NCBI GenBank assembly: GCA_033762915.1
Contig: JANRLD010000076.1
Location: 1 to 44,741, forward strand
Direction of reading: 5' to 3'
Source of the DNA: Meiothermus sp.
GTDB taxonomy: Bacteria; Deinococcota; Deinococci; Deinococcales; Thermaceae
DNA length: 44,741 nt
Positions within the stretch are counted from its first letter, which is position 1. Each line of letters starts with the position of its first letter. Positions 6,365 through 24,010 of the stretch are shown here, in pieces. The notes under the pieces are model-generated. The model was not told the DNA's origin and made no database searches. It was given only the letters and a program-made list of their open reading frames with translations. A program made the position numbers and the translations under genes.

Positions 6365-7522
6365 ATGGACACCTCCGCCATTCCCATCTTCGACCACCAC
6401 GCCCACCCGATCTACCTCGAGCGGCCCTGGCGCGAGGAGCCGCTCGAGCGCTACTTCAACCTCAGCCACGATCCCATGCTGCTGCGCAGCTTCGGGCGTG
6501 ACAACCTCTACTTCCGCCGCAGCCTGCGCGACCTGGCCGAGTTCTACGGCTGCGAGCCCCGGCTGGAGGCGGTGCTCGAGGCCCGCCAGGCGCCCGACTA
6601 CCTCGAGCTGTGCCGCTGGCTGTTCGCCGAGGCCAACCTGACCCACTGGCTGGTCGACGATGGGCTGGAGGGGGACGGCCTGTGGACGGTGGAGGCCTGC
6701 GGCGAGCACCTGCCCCCCGTCGCCCGCCGGCTGCTGCGTCTCGAGAGCGAGTTCGCCAAGCTCATCCCCAAGCACGACACCGCCACCAAACTGCTGGCTG
6801 CCTTCGACCACCACCTGCGCCGCGCCGCCCCCGGTGTGGCGGGCTTCAAGAGCGTGGTGGCGGGACGTAGCGGCCTCGAGATCGCCCGCCACAACCTGGT
6901 CGAGATCGAGCGGGCTTACAGCGAGCTGCGGCGCAGCACCCAGCTCGAGCAGAGCCCGCTCATCCGCAGCAAGCCCCTACTCGACGCGATGCTGTGGCAG
7001 GCCCTGCGGGTGGCCCAGGACAACGGCAAGGTGGTGCAGTTCCAGGCCGGGCTGGGCGGCCCCGACCTCGACCTACGCCTGGCCAACCCCCTGCACCTGC
7101 GCGGCGTCCTCGAGGCCCCCGACCTCAGGGGCGTGAAGATCGTGCTGCTGCACAGCTACCCCTTCGGTCGCGAGGCCGGCTACTTGGCCAGCCTCTACCC
7201 CAATGTCTACCTCGACGTGGGCCTGGGCATCCCCCGCGCCAGTACGGCGGGCATGCAGGCCACCCTCGAGGAGGCCCTGCACTTGGCCCCGGTCGGCAAA
7301 ATCCTTTTCTCCACCGGTGGCGCCTACACCCCCGAGGTCTTCTGGCTGGCCGCCCGCTGGGGCCGCCGCGCCCTGAGGAAGGTGCTCGAGCAGACCGTGC
7401 ACGACGGCGACCTCACCAAGGCTGAGGCCGAGTGGGCCGCGCTTCGCATCCTCCACGACAACGCCGCCGACCTCTACGGGCGCGGGGCCAATCCACCCAC
7501 CGAAACGGCGGTCGAGGTCTGA
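6365..7522 (+). CDS. Amidohydrolase family protein
   Basis: DHHAH metal motif, LANPLHL, IVLLHSYPF, YPNVYLD. Confidence 0.85.
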   Translation: MDTSAIPIFDHHAHPIYLERPWREEPLERYFNLSHDPMLLRSFGRDNLYFRRSLRDLAEFYGCEPRLEAVLEARQAPDYLELCRWLFAEANLTHWLVDDGLEGDGLWTVEACGEHLPPVARRLLRLESEFAKLIPKHDTATKLLAAFDHHLRRAAPGVAGFKSVVAGRSGLEIARHNLVEIERAYSELRRSTQLEQSPLIRSKPLLDAMLWQALRVAQDNGKVVQFQAGLGGPDLDLRLANPLHLRGVLEAPDLRGVKIVLLHSYPFGREAGYLASLYPNVYLDVGLGIPRASTAGMQATLEEALHLAPVGKILFSTGGAYTPEVFWLAARWGRRALRKVLEQTVHDGDLTKAEAEWAALRILHDNAADLYGRGANPPTETAVEV

Positions 7523-13835: not shown

Positions 13836-14813
13836 CTAGTAGTGCACCCAGCGCTTGGACAGGTGCAGGTTGATCAGGGTCAGGGCCAGGATGATCACGA
13901 AAAACACGCAGGCCAGCGCCGAGGCATAGCCCGCCCTGAAGCGCTGAAAGGCCAGCTCGTAAAGGTGCAAAACGTAGATGTTGGTGGCGCTGAGCGGGCC
14001 ACCTTGGGTCATGATCGAGGGAATCTCGAAGGACTGCATGGTGTGGATGATGCCTGTGATGACCAGAAACAGCGTGACCGGGCCGAGCAGCGGTAAGGTG
14101 ATCCGCCGGAACACCTGCCACTCCGAGGCCCCGTCAATGCGAGCCGCCTCCTGGAGTTCGGGGTTGATGTTGGAAAGGGCCGCCAGATAGATGACCGTCG
14201 AAAAGCCGACCGACTTCCAGATGGCCACCATGATGATGGCAGGCATCGCCCAGTTCGGATCGGAGACCCAGACCGGGGACTTCTGGCCGAGCAGATCGAA
14301 AAAGACTTTGAACACCCCGAAGTAGGGGTCGAGGACAAACAACCAGACAATGGCAGCGACGGCGGTAGAGGTGACAAAAGGCAGAAAAATAATGGTGCGA
14401 AAGAAGGTCTTAAAACGGATGTTTTGAAACAGCAGCACCGCCAAGAGGAGGGATAGGCCCAGGCGGATGAACACGGTAAAGAACGCGAACACCAAGGTGT
14501 TGCCGAGCACCTGATAGAAAACTGGGGAAGTGAGCAGTTCTTGGTAGTTTTTCAGCCCCACCAGATGCTTCTCAGGGCGGATCATATTCCAGTCGGTGAA
14601 ACTGACCCCGAAGGTAAAGAGAATGGGCCAGTAGGTGAAAACCGCCAGCAATAGCAGACCGGGCAGCACCAACACCGCGAACCACCGCAGGTTGTCCTGG
14701 GCGGTGTGTTTGCTCATCGGGTGGGCGGCGGGTTTGGGGCTCGAGAGGCTACTGGGTTTGGGAGACGGGTTCACTGGGTGGCCTCCGTTGCTCGAGCCCC
14801 TTTTCGACTCCAT
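13836..14813 (-). CDS. Carbohydrate ABC transporter permease (start uncertain)
   Basis: EAARIDGA EAA loop; ITLPLL; GYASA. Confidence 0.9.
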   Translation of the reverse strand: MESKRGSSNGGHPVNPSPKPSSLSSPKPAAHPMSKHTAQDNLRWFAVLVLPGLLLLAVFTYWPILFTFGVSFTDWNMIRPEKHLVGLKNYQELLTSPVFYQVLGNTLVFAFFTVFIRLGLSLLLAVLLFQNIRFKTFFRTIIFLPFVTSTAVAAIVWLFVLDPYFGVFKVFFDLLGQKSPVWVSDPNWAMPAIIMVAIWKSVGFSTVIYLAALSNINPELQEAARIDGASEWQVFRRITLPLLGPVTLFLVITGIIHTMQSFEIPSIMTQGGPLSATNIYVLHLYELAFQRFRAGYASALACVFFVIILALTLINLHLSKRWVHY

Positions 14814-14978
14814 GGAACTTTACTACAACACCTTCTTCGAGTCAAATGTGGCATTTTTTCATCGAAATATGTGTTCTGGATTGATAAACACAGAATCCCA
14901 CAGAGATTGGCGCGCTTGTAGTTTTTTTACGAATGAGCCTGTTGCGGGACAGAAATGGGGTATAAATAGGCTATCTTT

Positions 14979-15803
14979 ATGGATTTGTTCGTCCAACTCG
15001 AGCGTTTGCAGACCTCCCTCAGCCCATCAGAGCGGAAAGTCGCGGAAGCGGTGATGGGTCAGCCGCAGGTGGTATTGCGCCTGAGCATCTTGGAACTGGC
15101 CGCGCTGGCTGGGGTGAGTGAGCCCACCATCATCCGCTTTTGCCGAAAACTGGGCTGCGAAGGGTTTCGGGATTTCAAGCTGATCCTGGCGCAGAACTTG
15201 GTTTCCACCGAGACCTACGGCAGCATCGCGGTGACCCCCGAAGACTCAGCGGCAGACCTGGTCTCTAAGGTGTTCAACTCCACCATCGAAAAGCTGGCCC
15301 GCATTCGCGGGATGCTCGACCATGCCACCCTTGAGCAGGCCATCGAGGCGCTAACTAAAGCGCGTAAGGTGGAGTTTTACGGGCTGGGGTTTTCTGGCAA
15401 CATCGCCGTGGATGCCCACCATAAGTTTTTTCGCTTGGGCATACCTTGCATCGCCTACACCGAGGCCGCGATGCAACTGATCTCGGCTAAAACCTTGGGA
15501 AAAAAAGATGTGGTGGTGGCCATCTCCAACAGTGGGGGCATCAGCGAACTGCTCAAGAGCGTGGAAGTGGCCAGAGAGGCTGGGGCCACTGTTATCGGCA
15601 TTACTGCCAGGGGCTCAGCTTTGGCCAAGCTGTGCAGCATCGCGCTGACGGTGGAGCCACTCGAGCAGAAGGATGTGTACTCGCCCATCATCTCTCGAGT
15701 CGCACACCTGCTGGTTGTGGACACCTTGGCGGTCGCGGTAGCCCTGCACACCCCCACAGCCCACGCATCGGGTCGTCCAGCAAAAACCAAAAAAGCCGGT
15801 TAG
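14979..15803 (+). CDS. RpiR/HexR family transcriptional regulator (HTH + SIS)
   Basis: LSPSERKVA, VSEPTIIRFCRKLG, SIS domain; divergent from the ABC operon. Confidence 0.92.
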   Translation: MDLFVQLERLQTSLSPSERKVAEAVMGQPQVVLRLSILELAALAGVSEPTIIRFCRKLGCEGFRDFKLILAQNLVSTETYGSIAVTPEDSAADLVSKVFNSTIEKLARIRGMLDHATLEQAIEALTKARKVEFYGLGFSGNIAVDAHHKFFRLGIPCIAYTEAAMQLISAKTLGKKDVVVAISNSGGISELLKSVEVAREAGATVIGITARGSALAKLCSIALTVEPLEQKDVYSPIISRVAHLLVVDTLAVAVALHTPTAHASGRPAKTKKAG

Positions 15804-15926
15804 TTGCCAAAGTTTGCACGATCAACAAAGTCAACACAGGTGTTGCACCCTGACCGATAACTTCAGCAGGGGCTGATCGTGTTTCCCACCATTACCTCCC
15901 TCGAGGTGGCAGGTAATCTACCCCCT

Positions 15927-15997
15927 ATCGCGTTTCCCACCCACACTCCGCCCACAGTGCCGCGCTAAAGCGGGTGCTAAAGCGTGCGCTAAAGCGG
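15927..15997 (+). repeat. Dispersed repeat, copy 2
   Basis: ATCGCGTTTCCCACCC, then 3 near-perfect GCGCTAAAGCGG units from 15962. Confidence 0.7.
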
Positions 15998-16120
15998 AGA
16001 TTCTGTTGGCGAAGTCGGGGTGCAACTCGAGAAGTCGTGTCTTCATCGGTATCTCAATCCTCGCTTTATCACCCAGATTTGGAGTTCGCCAACAGAATCA
16101 GCGGAGTAGTGCGCTTGGTC

Positions 16121-16214
16121 CAGCAAAAACCGCCGTACCGAGTGTTCGTGGGAACCGCTCTACAGCAAAAACCGCCCGCTTTAGCGCCGTAGGGAGTATG
16201 CGTGGGAAACGCTC
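16121..16214. repeat. Imperfect tandem duplication containing an inverted copy of the dispersed repeat
   Basis: CAGCAAAAACCGCC...CGTGGGAA(C/A)CGCTC twice; CCGCTTTAGCGCC at 16176-16188. Confidence 0.6.
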
Positions 16215-16331
16215 TGACACCTTTGGCTTCCTTTGACCTGACTGAACCTGATTTCACTTGCCCCTTTCCCCCTCTATTTGTTCGAAAAATCCGCTCACCA
16301 GGCAATTCTAGTACGTAACGACATACCCCCC

Positions 16332-16385
16332 TTTACAAGACAACATTTGAATGCTACTATTCTCGATGTAGCATTCAAATGCTAC
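16332..16385 (+). promoter_or_regulatory. Sigma70-type promoter of the tRNA array with overlapping palindromic operator
   Basis: TTTACA-17-TACTAT with TG extension; CATTTGAATGCTAC/GTAGCATTCAAATG inverted repeat; GTAGCATT-CA-AATGCTAC palindrome. Confidence 0.8.
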
Positions 16386-16433
16386 TAATCGGTGCCCTTC
16401 AGAAGGTACTACGAACTTTGACAAATAAGCCTT

Positions 16434-16597
16434 GGTCGTCGGTGTTCCAGTTTCGACGGATACCGAAAGCGCCGTTGGCGCGTCACGGGTCAAGAGTCAG
16501 GACTCGAGAGCTAGAAGCAGCTCGAGGCCCCAGACTCCCGGCTCGAGACGGCGCGAAGCGCCCAGGAGACGTGGGTAGTAAGCCCCACTCGACGACC
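16434..16597 (+). ncRNA. Unknown structured RNA with tRNA-like 3' geometry
   Basis: Ends pair (GGTCGTCG/CGACGACC); GTGGG/CCCAC arm just before the 3' strand; several internal hairpins. Confidence 0.55.
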
Positions 16598-16605
16598 TTT
16601 ATCAC

Positions 16606-16680
16606 GGGCTGTTGGTGTCAACGGCAGCACGGCGCTCTCCAAAAGCGTTGGTTCTGGTTCAAATCCAGAGCAGCCCGCCA
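16606..16680 (+). tRNA. tRNA-Trp(CCA)
   Basis: Cloverleaf; loop CTCCAAA; CCA end. Confidence 0.92.
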
Positions 16681-16768
16681 AAAGCGCCACCTGCTGGGGT
16701 GGAAATGCTATCAATCGCAAAGTGGTCGGGGCTATGCCCTAGAGCTACGCCCCAACCCCTGTGCGATT
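16681..16768 (+). ncRNA. Repeated structured spacer RNA, copy 1
   Basis: Homologous to 16942-17016 with compensatory stem changes. Confidence 0.65.
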
Positions 16769-16769
16769 C

Positions 16770-16846
16770 CGTGGAGTAGCTCAGCTAGGAAGAGCCCTGG
16801 TTCGGGATACCAGAGGTCAGAGGTTCAAATCCTCTCTCCGCGACCA
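16770..16846 (+). tRNA. tRNA-Pro(GGG), C33
   Basis: CTGGT-TCGGGAT-ACCAG; C1-G72, A73; CGG in an alternative register. Confidence 0.82.
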
Positions 16847-16849
16847 TTT

Positions 16850-16941
16850 GGGTACGAGGTTGACTATCGGTTGGTCACGCCTCTGTGTAAAAGAGGAGCC
16901 CTAAAAAGCCCCTGTAGGTTCAATTCCTACCGTACCCACCA
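16850..16941 (+). tRNA. tRNA-Tyr(GTA)
   Basis: Loop GTGTAAA; long variable region; CCA. Confidence 0.85.
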
Positions 16942-17016
16942 AAAGCGCCAGCCCCTAAAGCTGGAGATGCTATCAACCGCAACGCGGCCCGGCTGGTCCG
17001 GTCACCCCTGCGCGGT
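16942..17016 (+). ncRNA. Repeated structured spacer RNA, copy 2
   Basis: Homologous to 16681-16768. Confidence 0.65.
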
Positions 17017-17019
17017 AAC

Positions 17020-17093
17020 GCAGAACTGGTGTAGTGGCAACACGCGACCATCCCAAGGTCGGGTTGCAGGTTCGATTCCTGCGTTCTGCTCCA
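17020..17093 (+). tRNA. tRNA-Gly(CCC)
   Basis: Loop ATCCCAA; U73; CCA. Confidence 0.9.
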
Positions 17094-17095
17094 TC

Positions 17096-17170
17096 GCGGA
17101 AATAGCTCAGAGGAAGAGCACTTCGTTGCCAACGAAGAGGCCGGGATTTCAAGACTCCCTTTCCGCACCA
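17096..17170 (+). tRNA. tRNA-Gly(GCC)
   Basis: Loop TTGCCAA; irregular T arm; A73. Confidence 0.85.
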
Positions 17171-17171
17171 T

Positions 17172-17246
17172 GCTTCGGTAGCTCAGAGGTAGAGCACCTG
17201 TCTGAAGAACAGGGGGTCGGTAGCTCAAAACTGCCCCGAAGCGCCA
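17172..17246 (+). tRNA. tRNA-Phe(GAA)
   Basis: Loop CTGAAGA; T loop CTCAAAA. Confidence 0.85.
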
Positions 17247-17249
17247 AGA

Positions 17250-17325
17250 GGGCTCCGTAGCTCAACGGCAGAGCGCCCCGTTTGCACCGGGGAGGCTGGG
17301 GGTTCAAATCCCCTCGAGTCCACCA
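17250..17325 (+). tRNA. tRNA-Ala(TGC)
   Basis: Loop TTTGCAC; G3:U70; bulged acceptor stem. Confidence 0.88.
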
Positions 17326-17367
17326 GCACAACCTGTAGGGACGCGGTACCCTGCTTCGCCGCGAAAT

Positions 17368-17442
17368 GGCTCCATAGTGTAGAGGATTGCACGCCACGTT
17401 GTCCGCGTGAGGGCGGGGGTTCGATTCCCCCTGGGGTCGCCA
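17368..17442 (+). tRNA. tRNA-Asp(GTC)
   Basis: Loop TTGTCCG; G73. Confidence 0.9.
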
Positions 17443-17445
17443 TGA

Positions 17446-17520
17446 TGGGAAGTCGTCTAAAGGCAAAGACGTCTGACTCTGACTCAGAAAATGTTGGTTC
17501 AATTCCAGCCTTCCTAGCCA
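17446..17520 (+). tRNA. tRNA-Gln(CTG)
   Basis: Loop CTCTGAC; U1-A72. Confidence 0.92.
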
Positions 17521-17568
17521 AAACGAAAACGAGAATGCCGCCGCACCGGGCGGCATGTTTTCGAGTTC

Positions 17569-17643
17569 GGTGCCATCGTCCAGCGGGCAGGACGTCACGT
17601 TCTCAGCGTGAAGACAGGGGTTCAAATCCCCTTGGCATCTCCA
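17569..17643 (+). tRNA. tRNA-Glu(CTC)
   Basis: Loop TTCTCAG; CCA. Confidence 0.9.
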
Positions 17644-17752
17644 GAAGGGCTCGAGGGACGCCTTGCTCGAAATGGTGAGGGCGAGCCCTTGCCGGAATCG
17701 AGGGTTTGTGCTAAAACTGTAAGGCTGATTTGAGCCTTATAGGCTCCCGAAC

Positions 17753-17827
17753 GGCCCCATCGTCTAGTGGTTAGGACGCCGCCCTCTCACGGCGGTAACA
17801 GGGGTTCAAATCCCCTTGGGGTCACCA
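17753..17827 (+). tRNA. tRNA-Glu(CTC), canonical housekeeping-like
   Basis: GGCCCCATCGTCTAGTGGTTAGGAC...; loop CTCTCAC. Confidence 0.95.
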
Positions 17828-17889
17828 GCGCACAATCCAGACGGTCTACCTGCCTCGCCCAAAGCGGGGCGGTTGACTTGTGTACGGCG

Positions 17890-17944
17890 TGGGGGCAAAC
17901 AGCCGATCAGACGGCTAAAGGTTCAAACCCTGCGTTCCCTGCCA
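17890..17944 (+). ncRNA. D-armless tRNA-like mini RNA
   Basis: GGGGGC/GTTCCC stem; AGCCG/CGGCT hairpin; AGG-TTCAAAC-CCT T arm; GCCA end. Confidence 0.55.
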
Positions 17945-17946
17945 TT

Positions 17947-18033
17947 GGAAGTGACGCCGAATTGGCTAAGGCACCCGTCTTGAAAACGGACAGTCCTCGA
18001 GACCTGTGGGTTCAATTCCCTCCACTTCCGCCA
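17947..18033 (+). tRNA. tRNA-Ser(TGA)
   Basis: Loop CTTGAAA; long variable arm; G73. Confidence 0.9.
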
Positions 18034-18101
18034 ACCGAACCTAAACACCAGCCACCCTTCCTCGCCAGGTCGAGGGAGGCCGGGAGGGTGAGGGGATGTC
18101 T

Positions 18102-18176
18102 GGGGTCGTAGCTCAATTGGCAGAGCGCTGCTGTGGCATGGCAGAGAAAGGGGTTCGACTCCCCTCGATTCCACCA
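18102..18176 (+). tRNA. tRNA-Ala(GGC)
   Basis: Loop GTGGCAT; G3:U70. Confidence 0.9.
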
Positions 18177-18178
18177 GT

Positions 18179-18253
18179 GAGGGTATCGCCTAACGGATAG
18201 GGCACCAGGCTTCGAACCTGGCCGTCGGGGTTCAAGTCCCTGTACCTTCGCCA
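18179..18253 (+). tRNA. tRNA-Arg(TCG)
   Basis: Loop CTTCGAA. Confidence 0.9.
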
Positions 18254-18280
18254 AACCGGTGCGCTGTCTGCACCAACCAC

Positions 18281-18357
18281 GCTCCCCTCGCCTAAAGGAG
18301 AGGGCAACGGTCTTCTAAACCGCCTATGTGCAGGTTCAATTCCTGCGGGGAGCACCA
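18281..18357 (+). tRNA. tRNA-Arg(TCT)
   Basis: Loop CTTCTAA. Confidence 0.9.
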
Positions 18358-18360
18358 CAT

Positions 18361-18437
18361 TGATCGGTAGCTTAACTCGGTAGAGCGCTCGATTGTTAAT
18401 CGAGTCTGTGCAGGTTCGATGCCTGCCCGATCAGCCA
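18361..18437 (+). tRNA. tRNA-Asn(GTT)
   Basis: Loop TTGTTAA; G73. Confidence 0.9.
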
Positions 18438-18440
18438 CGT

Positions 18441-18516
18441 TCCGAAGTAGCTCAAGAAGTAGAGCGCCTAGCTGTTACCTAGGACTGTGCAGGAGCGAAG
18501 CCTGCCTTCGGAGCCA
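18441..18516 (+). tRNA. tRNA-Asn(GTT), atypical T loop
   Basis: Loop CTGTTAC; T loop AGCGAAG; perfect stems. Confidence 0.82.
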
Positions 18517-18517
18517 T

Positions 18518-18593
18518 AGCGGATAACTGCCCCGGTGGGTAGGCAAGGCCCATAACCTTGACGCGGTGGGTTCGATTCCCACATCTGCAACCA
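18518..18593 (+). tRNA. tRNA-Met(CAT), initiator-like
   Basis: Loop CCCATAA; A1/A72 mismatch; atypical D arm. Confidence 0.75.
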
Positions 18594-18596
18594 AAT

Positions 18597-18673
18597 GCCC
18601 TTGTAGCTCAACTGGCCGAAGCGCCTCTCTTACAAAGAGGAGTATGGAGGTTCGAATCCTCTCCGGGGCACCA
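18597..18673 (+). tRNA. tRNA-Val(TAC)
   Basis: Loop CTTACAA. Confidence 0.88.
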
Positions 18674-18727
18674 AAGGGCTTCGCCCCTGTAAAGCGGCGT
18701 TGCCGAGGGCCATCCGGCCCAGCAAAC

Positions 18728-18801
18728 GCGAGATTGATGTAACGACAGCATGGCTGCCTTCCAAGCAGTCTGTGGGGGTTTGAGTCCTCCATCTCGCTCC
18801 A
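18728..18801 (+). tRNA. tRNA-Gly(TCC)
   Basis: Loop CTTCCAA; U73. Confidence 0.88.
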
Positions 18802-18803
18802 TT

Positions 18804-18879
18804 GTCGGTGTAGCTCAGTGAACAGAGCGCTGGCCTGCGAAGCCAGAGGTCGGTGGTTTGAGTCCACCCATTGACGCCA
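18804..18879 (+). tRNA. tRNA-Arg(GCG)
   Basis: CTGGC-CTGCGAA-GCCAG. Confidence 0.88.
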
Positions 18880-18880
18880 T

Positions 18881-18958
18881 CGGACAGTAGCTCAGCCGGT
18901 CCAGAGCATCCCTCTCATAAGGGGAAGTGCGTTGGTTCGAACCCAACCTGTCCGACCA
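18881..18958 (+). tRNA. tRNA(CAT): elongator Met or Ile2
   Basis: Loop CTCATAA; paired C1-G72. Confidence 0.85.
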
Positions 18959-18963
18959 TTTTC

Positions 18964-19037
18964 GACGCGATGACCGAGTGTCTAGGTGACTGGTTGCAAC
19001 CCAGTTGAGGGCGGTTAGATTCCGCCTCGCGTCTCCA
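18964..19037 (+). tRNA. tRNA-Cys(GCA)
   Basis: Loop TTGCAAC; U73. Confidence 0.88.
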
Positions 19038-19041
19038 CAAT

Positions 19042-19119
19042 CTTGCCTTGGCGCAACGGGTTCAGCGCATCCGTCTGATACGCGGAAGGTTCCTGGTTCG
19101 AGTCCAGGAGGCAAGACCA
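19042..19119 (+). tRNA. tRNA-Ile(GAT)
   Basis: Loop CTGATAC. Confidence 0.9.
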
Positions 19120-19124
19120 CTTTC

Positions 19125-19200
19125 GCTGATGTAGCTCGGTCGGCAGAGCACCCGCTTGGTAAGTGGGAGGCCGTGAGTTCGATCCTCACCATCAGCTCCA
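19125..19200 (+). tRNA. tRNA-Thr(GGT)
   Basis: Loop TTGGTAA. Confidence 0.92.
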
Positions 19201-19203
19201 CAT

Positions 19204-19279
19204 GGGTTTGGTCGTCTAATGGCTAGGACACTCGCTTGTGACGCGAGAGAAGGTGGGTCGGAACCACCCCTTACCCCCA
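19204..19279 (+). tRNA. tRNA-His(GTG), degenerate acceptor stem and T loop
   Basis: Loop TTGTGAC; G-1:C73; two T-T mismatches. Confidence 0.78.
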
Positions 19280-19311
19280 GAAAAGATTTCGCCGCTCGAG
19301 GCGAAATCCGT

Positions 19312-19386
19312 GCCGTGGTAGCTCAATGGTTGAGCGCCTGTTTTGTAAACAGGTGGCTGCCGGTTCAAGTCCGGCTCACGGCTCCA
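19312..19386 (+). tRNA. tRNA-Thr(TGT)
   Basis: Loop TTTGTAA. Confidence 0.92.
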
Positions 19387-19480
19387 GCACAAAGGAGGTG
19401 ATCCGACGGCAAGAACTCTTTAGCAGTACCACCCGAAAAAGGGTTCGGAGAGCGCAACGGTTTCGCCGAACCCCACCCCT

Positions 19481-19558
19481 GCTCCTGTGACGGGAACCGG
19501 CATACCTCTGCGCGCGAGAAGTGCAGGCTTGGGGGTTCAACTCCCCCTGGGAGCACCA
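19481..19558 (+). tRNA. tRNA-Leu(GAG), short variable loop
   Basis: Loop GCGAGAA; Leu-type D arm; A73. Confidence 0.78.
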
Positions 19559-19584
19559 AAATACTTGCCCTCGTGGCAGGCCGT

Positions 19585-19659
19585 GAAAGTGTGGCGCAAC
19601 CTGGCAGACGCGCACGGCTCAGAACCGTGTTGTTGAGGGTTCAAATCCCTCCACTTTCA
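19585..19659 (+). tRNA. tRNA-Leu(CAG), short variable loop, CCA not encoded
   Basis: Loop CTCAGAA; followed by CTA. Confidence 0.85.
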
Positions 19660-19664
19660 CTATC

Positions 19665-19741
19665 CAGAGGTTGGACTCGAGGCGAGTCTCCGCGCTTGGA
19701 ACGCGGACATCGGGCAGGTTCGACTCCTGCACCTCTGACCA
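19665..19741 (+). tRNA. tRNA-Pro(TGG)
   Basis: Loop CTTGGAA; C1-G72, A73. Confidence 0.85.
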
Positions 19742-19742
19742 T

Positions 19743-19820
19743 GATTCTGTGACGGGAACTGGCAGACCTGCTCCGCTTAGAACGGAGTGCTTGGGAGTTC
19801 GAATCTCCCCAGAATCACCA
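19743..19820 (+). tRNA. tRNA-Leu(TAG), short variable loop
   Basis: Loop CTTAGAA. Confidence 0.88.
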
Positions 19821-19838
19821 GAAGGTCTTTGCGCCTAT

Positions 19839-19918
19839 CGGGGGTGAAATGAGAACAGTCATTGGTTCTCTAACAGCGAAGACTTGGTTACTTGGTTCAA
19901 CTCCAAAACCCCCGACCA
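19839..19918 (+). ncRNA. tRNA-like RNA with D/anticodon region replaced by the ACAGC module
   Basis: CGGGGGT/ACCCCCG-ACCA; T arm; GAGAAC/GTTCTC-TA-ACAGCGA. Confidence 0.75.
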
Positions 19919-19923
19919 ACTTC

Positions 19924-20001
19924 GCTCTTGTGACGGGAACTGGCATACCTTGCTGTCTCAAAAACAGCAGCTTGGAGGTTCAAATCCTCCCAGGAGCACC
20001 A
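19924..20001 (+). tRNA. tRNA-Leu(CAA), short variable loop
   Basis: Loop CTCAAAA. Confidence 0.88.
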
Positions 20002-20004
20002 CTC

Positions 20005-20081
20005 CTCGAGGTGGCGTAACTGGCAAACGCAGCGGTCTTAAGAACCGTCCCATGCCGGTTCGAATCCCGCCCTCGAGACCA
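20005..20081 (+). tRNA. tRNA-Leu(TAA), short variable loop
   Basis: Loop CTTAAGA. Confidence 0.85.
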
Positions 20082-20090
20082 GCAGTACAC

Positions 20091-20178
20091 GGAAGGGTGG
20101 GCGAGCGGCTTATGCCACCTCACTGCTAAGGAGGAGAGCCTTTGGGCTCCGCAGGTTCAAATCCTGTCCCTTCCGCCA
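20091..20178 (+). tRNA. tRNA-Ser(GCT)
   Basis: Loop CTGCTAA; long variable arm; G73. Confidence 0.9.
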
Positions 20179-20210
20179 CAAGCCGCCTCGAGCTGAGGCG
20201 GCAGTTTTAT

Positions 20211-20328
20211 GGAAGCGTAGCTCAGAAGGTAGAGCAGGTAAAAAACGAGAGTTGGCCAATTCTCTGACAGCAAACCCATTCGCCTTGAACGCGCCGGGTC
20301 GTGGGTTCGAGTCCTACCGCTTCCACCA
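20211..20328 (+). ncRNA. 118-nt tRNA-like RNA with the ACAGCAA module inserted in the anticodon arm
   Basis: Canonical acceptor, D and T arms plus CCA; insert GAGAGTT/AATTCTC-TG-ACAGCAA. Confidence 0.8.
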
Positions 20329-20360
20329 ACACTCACTCGAGCCTAACCGCTCGAGTCCAT

Positions 20361-20436
20361 GCTGACTTCGCCTAACGGCCAAGGCCCCCGCCTCTTAAGC
20401 GGGTTGATGAAGGTTCAAATCCTTCAGTCAGCACCA
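20361..20436 (+). tRNA. tRNA-Lys(CTT)
   Basis: Loop CTCTTAA. Confidence 0.9.
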
Positions 20437-20437
20437 T

Positions 20438-20514
20438 GTCCTTGTAGCTCAACGGCCAGAGCAGCGGTCTTTTAAACCGTATTGGTGTAGGTTCGAGTCC
20501 TACCGAGGACACCA
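20438..20514 (+). tRNA. tRNA-Lys(TTT)
   Basis: Loop CTTTTAA. Confidence 0.92.
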
Positions 20515-20628
20515 CAAATACCCCTCCGGCCTTCGGCCACCTCCCCTGATCCTGATGTTTGCAGTGAATCAAGCCTCGAAGTTCGCCTCGAGGAATGCAC
20601 GCCCAAGGAGAGGCAAGGAGAGGCACAT

Positions 20629-20702
20629 GCTTTCGTAACTCAAGGTAGAGTGGCTGGTTCTTACCCAGTTCGGTGCAGGTTCAAGTCCTGCCGAAAGCAC
20701 CA
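20629..20702 (+). tRNA. tRNA-Lys(CTT), second copy
   Basis: GCTGG-TTCTTAC-CCAGT. Confidence 0.85.
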
Positions 20703-20820
20703 AAACTCACTGACATGGGCCGAGTAGCCTGTGTTTGCGGGCTACTCGAGCCCCTCACCCCAACCGCTCTCCCAAAGGGAGAGAGGACTTAATCGGGCTC
20801 GAGTCAGGAGCGTGATCCCC

Positions 20821-21390
20821 ATGAAGGAGGCAGAGAGACAGCAGCACACTATAGCTGCGAACGCGCAGCACGGCTCGCGCCGCGAGTCCATCAACATTGA
20901 CACCCCCAGAGTCCTAGTGCTCAACGCCGGGTTCCAGCCCCTGGGGATCGCCAGCATTCGCCGCGTGGTGGGCCTGGTGATGAGCGGGCTTGCCGAGGTG
21001 GTGGAGGAGTCGGGCGATTTCCTCCGCACCCCCACCAGCCAGTACCCCGTCCCCAAGATCGTCCGCGTCAAGAAGATGATCCGGCCCCGCTTGCGCGGAC
21101 TGCGTCTGAGCCGCCGCAACGTCTTCCGGCGCGACGCCCACACCTGTGCCTACTGCGGCAAGCGCACCTCAGACCTGACCCTCGACCATGTAATTCCGCG
21201 CTCGAGGGGCGGCAGCAACACCTGGGACAACCTGGTCTCGGCTTGCCAGAGCTGTAACCACCGCAAGGCCGACCGCACCCCCGAGGAGGCGGGCATGAAG
21301 CTCCTCCACAAGCCCGCCAAGCCCAGCCAGAGCGTGTGGCTGGACATCCTCGAGGTGCCCCGCGAGTGGAGGGTGTACTTCGGGGCGTAA
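20821..21390 (+). CDS. HNH endonuclease (McrA/HNH_5-like), start uncertain
   Basis: VLVLNAGFQPL; CAYCG...TLDHVIPRSRGG...NLVSACQSCNHRK. Confidence 0.92.
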   Translation: MKEAERQQHTIAANAQHGSRRESINIDTPRVLVLNAGFQPLGIASIRRVVGLVMSGLAEVVEESGDFLRTPTSQYPVPKIVRVKKMIRPRLRGLRLSRRNVFRRDAHTCAYCGKRTSDLTLDHVIPRSRGGSNTWDNLVSACQSCNHRKADRTPEEAGMKLLHKPAKPSQSVWLDILEVPREWRVYFGA

Positions 21391-21473
21391 AGGGCGGGTG
21401 TAGGGCGTAAAGTGCAAGGAATCTTAAGGGCCTTTGCATACCCTTTTGCTCTTCGCCCTATACCCGCGCTCCT

Positions 21474-21521
21474 AGGCTGCGCTAAACCGGCTTCTTCCCC
21501 AAAGAGAGCCGTCGCGGCCTG
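21474..21521 (+). repeat. Degenerate AGGCYGC/GCGGCCTG hairpin lacking ACAGCAA
   Basis: Same closing stem as the hairpins at 21629 and 21708. Confidence 0.5.
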
Positions 21522-21628
21522 TAAAGATCGTCATCAAAGCCATCGATCTCGAGGCGAGGGCGAACTCGAGGCTTCCCGAAACCCCACATAACCCACCGAA
21601 CCCAAGCCCATCGGCTACCCTGTTACCA

Positions 21629-21681
21629 AGGCCGCCTACAGCAACCAGACTCCTCCACTTGGGGTTACACTGTGCGGCCTG
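21629..21681 (+). ncRNA. ACAGCAA-module hairpin A
   Basis: AGGCCGC-CT-ACAGCAA...GCGGCCTG. Confidence 0.7.
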
Positions 21682-21707
21682 TTCTTTTGGGTGCCGAGCC
21701 GAAACAG

Positions 21708-21762
21708 AGGCCGCGCACAGCAAAAACCCCCATTCCCTTTTCAGGAAAGAGCATGCGGCCTG
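21708..21762 (+). ncRNA. ACAGCAA-module hairpin B (abuts the RBS)
   Basis: AGGCCGC-GC-ACAGCAA...GCGGCCTG, then AAGGAG. Confidence 0.7.
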
Positions 21763-21775
21763 AAGGAGCACAGCT

Positions 21776-23290
21776 ATGAACTTTCTCGAGCTTATGAACC
21801 AGGCCCAGGCTGCTGCCACCTGGAACGGCGCGCTCAGTCACGCCACCAGTGGCAGCGAGCTGGTAGACCTCTACTACCGAGCCGTGCGCGTGCCCGGCTC
21901 GGGCAAGGGTTTCCAGCACGGCGAGTATGTGCCCAAGCAGTTCCTTAGCTACCTCGCCAAGTCCTGGATGGTGAGCCCCGAGGCCGCACTACGCCTGCTG
22001 TTCCACTTGCGCGATGTGCGCGAGGGCAAGGGCGAGCGGGCCATGTTCTATGCGGGCATGGTCTGGCTGGCCAAGACCGACTTGGGGCTGTTCCTCCGCG
22101 CTCTAGCCCTGGTGCCCGAGTACGGCGCATGGAAGGACGTGCTCGAGATCGCCGTCCTCCTCGGCGACGAGCGCGTGACCGCCGAAGCGGTGCGGCTGTT
22201 TGTTCGGGCCCTTCAGGACGGCGACGCCCTGGCCCACCAAGCCGGTCGCCCCGGCGACGCGGCTCTAGCAGCCAAGTGGGCCCCCAGCGAGGGCAAGCGC
22301 CTCGACCGCGCCCTGGGTTTCGTCGAGCGCGTGTGCAAGGCCGCCGGCTGGAGCCGCAAGACCTACCGCGATACCCTGGTGGCGCTGCGGCGGGTGGTCG
22401 AGACCCCCATGAGTGCACGCGAGTGGGAGCGCATCGAGTACGCCCACGTGCCCGCCAAGGCCATGTTGACCTACAACAAGGCTTTCGAGCGCCACGCCCC
22501 CGAGGCTTTCAAGGGCTACCTCGAGGCCGTCCGGAAGGGCGAGGCCAGGATCAACGCCGCTGCCCTGATGGCCCACGAGATCGTGGCGAGGTGGTTCTCC
22601 GGAGCCCTGGGCGAGGCCGAGGAGTTGCAGTGGCGGGCGCTGGTCGAGCAGTATGGCGCCAGCCTCGAGAACACCCTCTGCGTGGTGGACGTTTCTGGCT
22701 CGATGCAGTCGGGCTGGGGCCGGGTCAAGCCCATCCACGTGGCGCTGGGCCTGGGTCTGCTGGCGGCCCACGCGCAGAAGGGCGTGTTCGCGGGCGCCTT
22801 CGTCACCTTCAGCGCCCAGCCCACCCTGCAGCGCGTCAACCTGCGGGCCAGGCTGGCCACCCAGCTCCAGAGCATGAACACCGCCGCCTGGGACATGAAC
22901 ACCGACATCCAGGCCGTGTTCCAGCTGATCCTGGACACCGCCCGGGCCAACCGGCTGCCCCAGCGCCAGTTGCCCCGGCGCGTCCTGATCTTCAGCGACA
23001 TGCAGTTCGACCAGGCCACCGGCGGCAACCAGCTCACCAACTTCCAGAAGGCCCAGCGGGACTTCGAGCGGGCGGGCTATGTGCTGCCCGAGCTGATCTT
23101 CTGGAACGTCAACGGCGCGACCGCCGACTTCCCCGTCCAGATGCACCAGAGCGGCGCGGTGCTGGTGTCGGGCTGGAACCAGACCCTCTTCAAGGCCCTC
23201 TCGCAGAACCGCATCGTCGACCCCCTGCAGATGGTGCTCGAGATCCTCGGCAAGCCCCGCTACGACGCGGTGGGCAAGCTGGTCGCGTGA
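21776..23290 (+). CDS. DUF2828 family protein (TROVE/Ro60-like helical domain + vWA)
   Basis: NGALSHATSG, LRDVREGKGER, YGAWKD, AAKWAPSE, MIDAS DVSGSM, FSDMQFD, PELIFWN; family recognised from motifs, not by database search. Confidence 0.88.
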   Translation: MNFLELMNQAQAAATWNGALSHATSGSELVDLYYRAVRVPGSGKGFQHGEYVPKQFLSYLAKSWMVSPEAALRLLFHLRDVREGKGERAMFYAGMVWLAKTDLGLFLRALALVPEYGAWKDVLEIAVLLGDERVTAEAVRLFVRALQDGDALAHQAGRPGDAALAAKWAPSEGKRLDRALGFVERVCKAAGWSRKTYRDTLVALRRVVETPMSAREWERIEYAHVPAKAMLTYNKAFERHAPEAFKGYLEAVRKGEARINAAALMAHEIVARWFSGALGEAEELQWRALVEQYGASLENTLCVVDVSGSMQSGWGRVKPIHVALGLGLLAAHAQKGVFAGAFVTFSAQPTLQRVNLRARLATQLQSMNTAAWDMNTDIQAVFQLILDTARANRLPQRQLPRRVLIFSDMQFDQATGGNQLTNFQKAQRDFERAGYVLPELIFWNVNGATADFPVQMHQSGAVLVSGWNQTLFKALSQNRIVDPLQMVLEILGKPRYDAVGKLVA

Positions 23291-23325
23291 CCCGAGTGGG
23301 GTCCATCGATTCCCCACAGTAACCC

Positions 23326-23418
23326 CAAGCCCCGTACAGCAAACCTCTAAACTCGGGTTAGGCCGAAAGGCTGCCGGTTCAAATCCAGCGAGATGGCTCG
23401 CGCCATGAAAGGGGCTTG
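23326..23418 (+). ncRNA. ACAGCAA-module RNA with permuted tRNA-like arms (Y-RNA-like)
   Basis: CAAGCCCC-GT-ACAGCAA...GGTTCAAATCC...GGGGCTTG. Confidence 0.75.
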
Positions 23419-23469
23419 TGATGGGGCCTTGCTCGCGTAGGGAGATTCATGAGCTACAAATTGCCCTCG

Positions 23470-23501
23470 AGGCAGGACGCGAACTGCGTCCTGCCTTTTT
23501 T
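23470..23501 (+). terminator. Intrinsic terminator closing the tRNA/HNH/DUF2828 unit
   Basis: AGGCAGGACGC-GAACT-GCGTCCTGCCT-TTTTT. Confidence 0.85.
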
Positions 23502-24010
23502 CATGGCTTGACCGGGGCGGCTTCGAACTCGATGGGGGTGTGTTCGGAGAAGCCGCCGGTGGTGAGCATCTCGAACTTGATGCTGTCCGGGCTGGCGGTG
23601 CCCTTGTAGCTGTGCTTTAGCTCGCGGGTCTCGCTCGCCCCGCCCAGCGACTCCTGCGTCTTGACCACGAAGCGCAGGGTGTCGCCCTCCATCCGGCCCT
23701 CGAGGATGGCCCGCCGCACGCCCAGGAACGAGGCGGTGCCGCTCAGCTCCTTGCCCTCGAGTTTGAAATTGAACTGCTCGGTGCGGCTCACCCCCCAGTC
23801 GTAGCGCACCTCGGCCCGCCATACACCCGAAACGTCCATCGTGGGTGCGGTCCTGGCCTCCTCGCTGACCCCGAAGAACTTGTTCCACAAGTCCATGATC
23901 GAGTCCAGGTTGCCCGCTGCGCCTCCCGCCGTCGCCAGCACCGCGATGGCCGCCACCCCGTAGCGGCGGTACTTCATCCACGGCTTGGCCTTGCTCGCCT
24001 TATTGCTCAT
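23501..24010 (-). CDS. Hypothetical exported or membrane-anchored protein
   Basis: N-terminal hydrophobic segment; beta-rich domain (DVSGVW). Confidence 0.7.
   Translation of the reverse strand: MSNKASKAKPWMKYRRYGVAAIAVLATAGGAAGNLDSIMDLWNKFFGVSEEARTAPTMDVSGVWRAEVRYDWGVSRTEQFNFKLEGKELSGTASFLGVRRAILEGRMEGDTLRFVVKTQESLGGASETRELKHSYKGTASPDSIKFEMLTTGGFSEHTPIEFEAAPVKP

Follow-up and report, generated by a model that had tools for sequence, protein, structure and literature searches.

What is encoded between the genes of a dense transfer RNA (tRNA) array when two of its gaps are filled by related sequences that are not tRNAs? We consider this question for a contig of Meiothermus sp. (GenBank assembly GCA_033762915.1, contig JANRLD010000076.1), all 44,741 nucleotides (nt) of which form the analysed stretch, called the window below. 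Two gaps of a tRNA array in this window, 16681-16769 (copy 1) and 16942-17019 (copy 2), hold paralogous elements that an earlier note had described as a duplicated, two-domain structured RNA, with an unnamed noncoding RNA, a processing signal and a ribozyme as possible identities. The elements look like a local structured spacer RNA, not a new widespread family or a ribozyme. Our tentative explanation, to which we assign a probability of roughly 40%, is a lineage-specific structured spacer that is co-transcribed with the tRNAs, cut out during tRNA maturation and active in cis. Whatever in this account goes past the sequence, the predicted fold and the variation is inference.

Two related spacers in a tRNA array

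ARAGORN and Rfam place the tRNA genes of the array at 16606-20702, tightly packed and every one on the + strand. ARAGORN recognizes 34 of them and Rfam alone at least three further tRNA-like genes, for a total of about 37. Because ARAGORN counts 86 tRNAs in the whole 5.4-Mb genome, 34 of them within the array, the array is an extra set beside the normal tRNA complement. The 36 gaps among its 37 genes comprise 20 of 0-5 nt, one of 9 nt and 15 of at least 25 nt; with 20 of the 36 no longer than 5 nt, long spacers are not the default arrangement.

Copy 1 (89 nt, + strand) is the entire gap between tRNA-Trp(cca) at 16606-16680 and tRNA-Pro(ggg) at 16770-16846, and copy 2 (78 nt, + strand) is the entire gap between tRNA-Tyr(gta) at 16850-16941 and tRNA-Gly(ccc) at 17020-17093, all four tRNAs being ARAGORN predictions. 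Both elements begin at the base following CCA and end at the base directly before the next tRNA. The tRNA ends therefore confirm that each copy stands directly behind a tRNA CCA, as the earlier note had said, and its remark that the copies fill almost the whole spacer can be sharpened to complete gaps. Like RNAs derived from the spacers of tRNA operons, the elements lie between co-oriented tRNAs and have neither a promoter nor a terminator of their own.

The two copies are paralogues, with a mean column identity of 79% in a MAFFT alignment. Their homology ends exactly at the tRNA borders, even though the types of the flanking tRNAs differ. The alignment recovers the conserved blocks already listed in the earlier note, namely AAAGCGCCA, the block around ATGCTATCAA, and ACCCCTG..GCG. 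When up to three mismatches are allowed, a 17-base core pattern matches the window twice, at the two elements; 0.09 matches are expected, and 0 of 100 shuffles gave two or more.

A covariance model (R1) was built from the two copies with 18 base pairs. As a two-sequence model, R1 sees mostly primary sequence and would miss distant structural relatives. Run on the 5.4-Mb genome, it scores copy 1 at 104.9 bits and copy 2 at 88.2 bits; the next-best matches reach 27 bits (the antisense strand of copy 1) and 22 bits (inside coding-looking sequence). Neither R1 nor a comparison of the spacers relates any other spacer of the array to the elements. A candidate partial third copy in the array leader was rejected, having only AAAGCGCC in common with the elements and no R1 match.

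Predicted fold and covariation

Both copies are predicted to share one layout: two unpaired A residues, a hairpin (P1), a linker of about 4 nt and a long hairpin (P2). In copy 1, P1 (16683-16709, + strand) starts from a lower helix of 4 base pairs (bp; AGCG/TGCT, one of them G-U); above it come an upper helix of 5-6 bp (CCACC/GGTGG) and a variable loop, and the 3' strand bulges by 3 nt between the two helices. P2 of the same copy (16714-16767, + strand) has a basal helix of 5-6 bp, a middle section with three conserved G-C pairs, and a distal part that varies. We read this distal part (16731-16756, + strand) as two adjacent 13-nt units, identical at 9 of 13 positions; Tandem Repeats Finder does not call them, and the two-unit view is our own. 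It is the fastest-changing stretch among related strains, in one of which a loose contig end suggests extra 13-nt units.

The conserved 10-base block ATGCTATCAA (16705-16714 in copy 1, + strand) is identical in both copies and spans the last bulge base, the 3' strand of lower P1, the 4-nt linker and the first base of P2. It occurs at just these two sites in the 5.4-Mb genome, counting either strand, where composition predicts 1.9, and no perfect complement of it exists anywhere in the genome. Loop lengths do vary between the copies, as previously noted. The accompanying claim of fixed linkers holds insofar as the blocks are conserved; however, TGCT, assigned to a linker, has AGCG at the 5' end as its predicted pairing partner, which leaves a truly unpaired linker of just about 4 nt. 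A pseudoknot between the P1 loop and the ACCCCTG block was considered and dropped, with no complementarity common to both copies.

The minimum free energy of copy 1 is -39.4 kcal/mol, clearly below that of shuffles (z = -3.7). The opposite strand folds about equally well as the + strand, and the G-U pair of lower P1, kept in both copies, would be a C-A mismatch on that other strand.

Comparing 20 homologous pairs between the copies, we find 15 identical, two compensatory (in P1, C-G in one copy is G-C in the other; in basal P2, U-A becomes C-G) and three that pair in copy 1 and do not in copy 2. Both compensatory changes claimed in the earlier note are thus real, and the covariation it saw is present at these two pairs; still, this is a comparison of only two sequences, in which three other pairs are lost from copy 2. 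If the seven differences over 40 stem positions are permuted, at least two compensatory pairs arise with P = 0.0135. A control that shuffles the alignment is powerless with two sequences (254 of 500 shuffles reach the observed value). RNAalifold recovers the P2 pair only, because MAFFT shifts the gap in the P1 loop by one column and the P1 pair is missed. As support for a structure, the two compensatory pairs are suggestive, not strong.

Variation among related strains

Natural variants can be read from the DNA contigs of metagenome studies, which show neither RNA ends nor RNA levels; among public runs, no RNA run containing the stretch is listed. Near-identical arrays (about 97% identity) are found on contigs from three studies (X1, X5 and X6), and a fourth study (X8) holds an array without differences across the part covered. 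Over the three variant sets copy 1 has nine changes, six of them in X1. Two concern P1: a 2-nt deletion in the loop, which keeps the stem, and one change in the bulge. The remainder comprise one internal-loop change, four changes in distal P2 (one of which opens the first pair of the distal helix) together with a 1-nt deletion there, and one change opening the top basal pair of P2. Three of the nine give the state found in copy 2. The 34 positions at which both copies are base-paired escape all nine (P = 0.013; excluding the fast distal part, 0.038), and the predicted layout of copy 1 survives in the variants.

In copy 1 the helices in general, and in both copies P1, seem constrained; P2 of copy 2 is doubtful. 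Overall, the evidence for structural constraint is thin and the support for a structure modest. A coding function was rejected: the conserved ATG frames diverge after six codons, run into the tRNAs and are hit by non-synonymous and frameshifting variants.

Known RNA families and relatives elsewhere

The Rfam search suggested by the earlier note was run and assigned no family to either element at expectation (E) values up to 10, with tRNA-like, Y RNA and ribozyme models included; this outcome fits an unnamed RNA. Matches at gathering level in the window are to tRNAs only. No tRNA, tRNA-Sec or tRNA-like Rfam match overlaps 16681-16769 or 16942-17019 at E up to 10, and ARAGORN finds no tRNA there. 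Nor do the Rfam models of self-cleaving ribozymes (hammerhead, HDV-like, twister, pistol, hatchet and others) match within 16300-20800 at E up to 10, which leaves the ribozyme idea with no known self-cleaving model behind it.

Relatives were sought in several collections. In 60 related genomes, a 16-base core with one mismatch allowed has five matches, all of them away from tRNAs and lacking the flanking blocks; the exact core occurs in 86 stretches of IMG/VR, 0 of them with the flanking motifs. A gapped pattern of the core matches three GTDB genome contigs (one genome per species) and one JGI metagenome sequence, none with tRNAs, and the sole R1 match among these contigs is a 12-bit partial one. 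The combination of CCA, P1 and linker is matched three times in IMG/VR, with no tRNA and no R1 match. All of these pattern matches were regarded as chance or unrelated. Using blastn, copy 1 gives only short matches (E >= 0.2) to phages and plasmids, none over about half of the query, and against phages nothing above about one-third query coverage; megablast of 14000-22000 against phages returns nothing.

R1 was further run on 85 phage loci: three with Ro60-like genes, two annotated phage loci, and 80 viral loci that contain a relative of the HNH endonuclease gene adjoining the array. No match was obtained at E up to 5-10, save one 10-bit fragment. The 80 HNH loci amount to 906 kb and 720 tRNAs; within at most 12.6 kb, 46 of the 80 hold at least two tRNAs and 28 at least 15, and none of these phage tRNA arrays has the gene order of the present one. 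Homologues with covariation in other tRNA arrays, which the earlier note had proposed to look for with a covariance model, are thus absent from every collection searched.

The Y RNA question

A protein of the DUF2828/DUF7788 family is encoded at 21776-23290 (+ strand; Pfam, and phrog_850 'RNA-binding protein' with E 1.4e-110), and its fold, a HEAT ring with a vWA domain, resembles that of Ro60. By sequence, it matches no chain in the PDB; Ro60-like proteins that are 94%, 77% and 70% identical were found on other contigs. Its AlphaFold model (AF2) has a predicted local distance difference test (pLDDT) value of 87, and the top 11 Foldseek matches in the PDB are all Ro60 structures: Thermus phage phiLo, Xenopus and human Ro60, and Deinococcus Rsr (E 2.5e-7 to 7e-6, template modelling (TM) scores 0.43-0.60). 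The family is found in 695 phage records, with the mycobacteriophage annotation 'Ro-like RNA binding protein', but the protein is absent from the other 362 genomes searched of the host's order. In the host genome, which is 95.5% complete, there is no TROVE match.

Are the elements the Y RNAs of this protein? There is some resemblance to YrlA and to Yrl1 and Yrl2 of phiLo: the elements lie near a Ro60-fold gene, on the same strand and in a tRNA-rich setting, and both kinds of RNA are about 80-110 nt long. YrlA-type Y RNAs, as characterized in the relevant part of Chen 2014 (PMC4201824), combine a GNCGAAN0-1G motif with a tRNA-like domain and are usually encoded on the strand of the Ro60 gene, no more than 4 kb from it. 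For phiLo, the section on its RNAs in PMC12135203 has them chosen by a CGAA motif within a stem of the two ends, and draws the Ro60-bound Yrl1 with two hairpins.

The elements differ from this description in most respects. Neither YrlA (RF02553, gathering cutoff 69 bits) nor Y_RNA matches either element at E up to 10; across the whole genome YrlA gives only sub-threshold matches, on parts of tRNAs where checked, and one of them, on contig C71, proved to be two adjacent tRNAs. A motif scan of 15801-23600 places neither GNCGAAN0-1G nor CGAA inside either element. The predicted folds have no stem joining the 5' and 3' ends, being two side-by-side hairpins with unpaired ends, and contain nothing resembling a T arm or a D arm. 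The distance to the start of the Ro60-fold gene, 4.8-5.1 kb downstream on the same strand, is somewhat beyond the 4 kb or so that is usual. A GGTCCG in the loop of copy 2, reminiscent of human Y RNA, is missing from copy 1 and occupies another structural place, and was treated as chance.

A better Y RNA candidate lies directly behind the Ro60-like gene, at 23326-23421 (+ strand), with an 8-bp end stem, a hairpin carrying the motif (23362) and a T-arm-like hairpin; a strong terminator follows at 23474-23505. At E up to 5 the Rfam YrlA model does not match this candidate, whose fold reaches a z of only -1.55. In Mycobacterium phage Lumos, a full-length, sub-threshold YrlA match (positions 6549-6657 of locus L108; 39.3 bits, E 1.5e-5) similarly lies in an unannotated gap, immediately following the gene for the 'Ro-like RNA binding protein', a member of the DUF2828 family. 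The elements are probably not the Y RNAs of the Ro60-like protein.

Promoter-like and terminator-like sites and possible antitermination

Upstream of the array, the + strand has a single promoter-like site, at 16332-16360 (TTTACA, a 17-nt spacing and TACTAT, with TG); it is a consensus match only. The elements would start about 314 and 575 nt downstream of it. A long imperfect inverted repeat at 16338-16390 overlaps this site and may be an operator. Downstream of both elements are two terminator-like hairpins on the + strand: one at 17535-17562 (z = -4.1), flanked by A and T tracts and at most 14 nt before the next tRNA, and one at 20182-20209 (z = -5.3), with 9 bp and a T-rich tail, directly before the next tRNA-like gene. 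Terminator-like sites are no commoner in the sequence than in shuffles (7 versus 6.8). With tRNA genes almost directly behind both hairpins, the genes downstream would need read-through, and an antiterminator reading is therefore worth stating.

The put RNAs of phage HK022 offer a comparison. As outlined in the put passages of PMC9378689, there are two of them, about 70 nt long and similar in sequence, each with two bulged stem-loops; their distance from the promoter is at most about 270 nt, and the terminators on which they act lie kilobases away. Set against this description, the predicted folds agree in shape, with two similar copies of about 70-90 nt, each having two bulged stem-loops, and the promoter-like and terminator-like sites, which are consensus matches only, stand in the order relative to the elements that a put-like cis action would require. 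Unlike in HK022, where there is one put per operon, both copies are in a single operon, between tRNAs. Moreover, put depends on the zinc-binding domain of the enterobacterial beta' subunit, and the elements are likened to it by architecture alone.

The elements also recall the boxB-boxA sites of ribosomal RNA (rRNA) operons, in which a hairpin is followed by a short conserved unpaired motif, repeated in a long untranslated operon. As the assembly itself has no 16S gene, the rRNA leaders of the genus were read from four complete genomes; they have in common a motif that follows a boxB-like hairpin. Neither the 16S nor the 23S leader motif resembles the linker of the elements, which fits the genus motif at 8 of 15 positions in the one ungapped register compared by eye, and antitermination of the Nus/boxA type was rejected. 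In the same four genomes (L211-L226), 16S stands alone with a terminator immediately behind it, and 23S has its own promoter and leader. Two other candidates were discarded: an internal promoter (the linker is faintly like an extended -10 element with the final T missing, and the promoter scan is negative there) and an opposite-strand terminator (the scan accepts copy 2 alone, so the copies are inconsistent).

Comparison with other RNAs from tRNA clusters

In Escherichia coli, 3'ETS-leuZ and ITS-metZW are sponges derived from the trailer and spacer of tRNA operons; they pair with known small RNAs and are freed by ribonuclease (RNase) E. The elements resemble them in being non-tRNA segments between processing sites that would share a transcript with tRNAs and come free as by-products of maturation. 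They differ in that the conserved block has no perfect genomic complement and the host has no RNase E/G match, so that release by RNase E in the manner of E. coli does not apply.

Another parallel is found in phage T4, whose RNAC and RNAD are located in its tRNA cluster. The lines devoted to these in PMC9697503 call them small RNAs of yet unknown functions. They are comparable to the elements as small non-tRNA RNAs among phage tRNA genes with no known function; unlike the elements, which are known from sequence and compared here by description, they have been shown on Northern blots.

Weighing the explanations

If the elements work as RNA, they would do so on the tRNA strand, as two paralogous parts of a polycistronic tRNA precursor. 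Transcription of the array would start at a promoter upstream of tRNA-Trp, and each spacer would fold with P1 right after the CCA and P2 right before the next tRNA. From what is generally known of RNase P, a cut at the 5' end of tRNA-Pro or tRNA-Gly would create the 3' end of the element, and an endonuclease, or 3' exonucleases proceeding toward the CCA, could make or consume its 5' end. The hairpins may serve mainly in cis, letting the flanking tRNAs fold independently and shielding or timing the 3' maturation of tRNA-Trp and tRNA-Tyr. The excised two-hairpin fragment of 80-90 nt would be a by-product that may or may not accumulate. Among the proposals of the earlier note, an unnamed structured RNA or processing signal is the most reasonable, in view of the strand, the exact borders, the lack of an Rfam family, the two compensatory pairs and the avoidance of the core of copy 1 by natural variants; its ribozyme proposal is not retained.

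Several results weigh against a processed, cis-acting spacer, and most of them would be expected if an old spacer hairpin had simply been copied within the array and were now drifting as a functionless, GC-rich palindrome with slippage-prone loops, a reading that has a limited but real chance of being correct. There are just two copies in one lineage, seen in near-identical strains only, with no homologue beyond. Copy 2 (minimum free energy -24.5 kcal/mol, z = +0.18) is no more stable than shuffles and has the three broken pairs described above. Its single variant contig carries, besides a linker change, a C-to-G substitution by which a core pair of P2 is lost and the predicted fold shifted. 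Copy 1 has undergone 6 to 9 events in 89 nt, compared with three in the 166-nt leader and none in tRNA-Trp and tRNA-Pro. Hairpin spacers are not needed for processing in general, since 20 junctions of the array work with 0-5 nt, and several of the 15 spacers of at least 25 nt (out of 36) have unrelated hairpins. Two stable hairpins straight after the CCA would hinder exonucleolytic 3' trimming, and the host genome has no RNase E/G match for the step that would free the 5' side. The powerless shuffle control also favours neutral drift to some extent. Drift accounts poorly, however, for two compensatory double changes among only seven stem differences, for the absence of any of the nine orthologue changes from the core-paired bases in copy 1 and for homology that stops exactly at the tRNA borders.

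Rather unlikely, in our view, is a small RNA that is released from the tRNA precursor and acts in trans, either as a Y-RNA-like partner or substrate of the Ro60-like protein or as a sponge or regulator through its conserved unpaired bases. The Ro60-fold gene 4.8-5.1 kb downstream on the same strand speaks for it, as Ro60 partners are usually encoded nearby in that orientation by the account in Chen 2014 (PMC4201824), and so do the two-hairpin drawing of a phiLo RNA in PMC12135203, the T4 precedent mentioned in PMC9697503 and a conserved block unique to the elements in the genome. Set against these are the features of Y RNAs that the elements lack, the better placed candidate at 23326-23421 with its counterpart in Lumos, and the missing perfect complement. 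We consider a put-like antiterminator improbable to a similar degree: the nascent two-hairpin RNA would bind RNA polymerase in cis and carry it through the two terminator-like hairpins. Two similar elements stand in the appropriate place, and with the next tRNA within about 14 nt of each hairpin there is no room for a promoter in between; against this, the resemblance is one of architecture, two copies share an operon, the promoter and terminators are consensus matches of a kind as frequent in shuffles, and the Nus/boxA version finds no support in the genus leaders.

A DNA-level role is very unlikely; the inverted repeats would then serve for recognition or recombination, for instance as the target of the HNH enzyme or as a joint of cassette assembly. 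The adjoining HNH gene, the presence of its relatives in phage tRNA arrays, the report of HNH genes in horizontally acquired mycobacterial tRNA clusters in a passage of PMC6582537, the homology ending at tRNA borders and the nearly equal folding of both strands are compatible with it. But the compensatory changes preserve pairing and not sequence, which is a poor fit to a site recognized by a protein; the conserved G-U works on + strand RNA only, and the 80 viral loci with the same HNH family contain no related site. We give the least credence of all to a self-cleaving ribozyme separating the tRNAs: only the position between tRNAs and the compact fold suggest it, whereas no Rfam ribozyme model matches, the fold is a pair of simple hairpins in which neither a junction nor a pseudoknot was found, and RNase P already explains the 3' boundary.

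Should the elements prove to work, imported tRNA arrays would carry, besides the tRNAs, RNA devices that serve their processing, read-through or quality control, a point that matters for the expression of such arrays after transfer to a new host. It is a long shot that they represent a new class of tRNA-array RNA recognized by a protein, whether as put-like read-through modules or as a second non-canonical RNA of the DUF2828-type Ro60 homologue. Because the elements occur in one lineage and the functional evidence is statistical and thin, the finding is of local interest only. The setting is also a testable one, with about 37 tRNA genes, an HNH endonuclease, a little-studied DUF2828 protein of Ro60 fold and a likely Y RNA on about 7.7 kb.

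The island and its neighbours

These same genes make up an island of about 7.7 kb that looks imported and phage-like, given its base composition, the HNH endonuclease and the phage-distributed DUF2828/DUF7788 protein. The G+C content of the array region is 56-58%, compared with about 66% around it. The flanks consist of ordinary bacterial genes: to the left, those for an ATP-binding cassette (ABC) transporter and a regulator of the RpiR type; to the right, those for an oxidoreductase and LptF/LptG. The borders of the island are not definable from relatives within the genus, since their flanks are too diverged.

The HNH endonuclease gene (20731-21390, + strand; Pfam HNH_5/HNH, phrog_16726) is directly behind the array. 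The association of such genes with tRNAs in the viral loci fits reports of HNH genes inside horizontally acquired tRNA clusters, mycobacterial ones in the pertinent part of PMC6582537.

Within the array, several of the long spacers (17828-17946, 19821-19923, 18517-18590 and 19481-19556) contain T-arm-like sequence or sub-threshold tRNA-like matches and may be decayed or unusual tRNAs; the array thus holds more than 34 genes of tRNA type. A tRNA-like gene at 20210-20332 (+ strand), called neither by ARAGORN nor by the Rfam tRNA model, has a normal acceptor stem, D arm, T arm and CCA, with about 65 nt in place of the anticodon arm.

Two short repeats occur near the array. Upstream of it, CTAAAGCG occurs three times in tandem (15960-16000), with one inverted copy further on (16185-16200), and CAGCAAAAACC is present twice before the array (16125 and 16165) and once behind the HNH gene (21718). 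These repeats may be sites for a regulator or mark the borders of the island.

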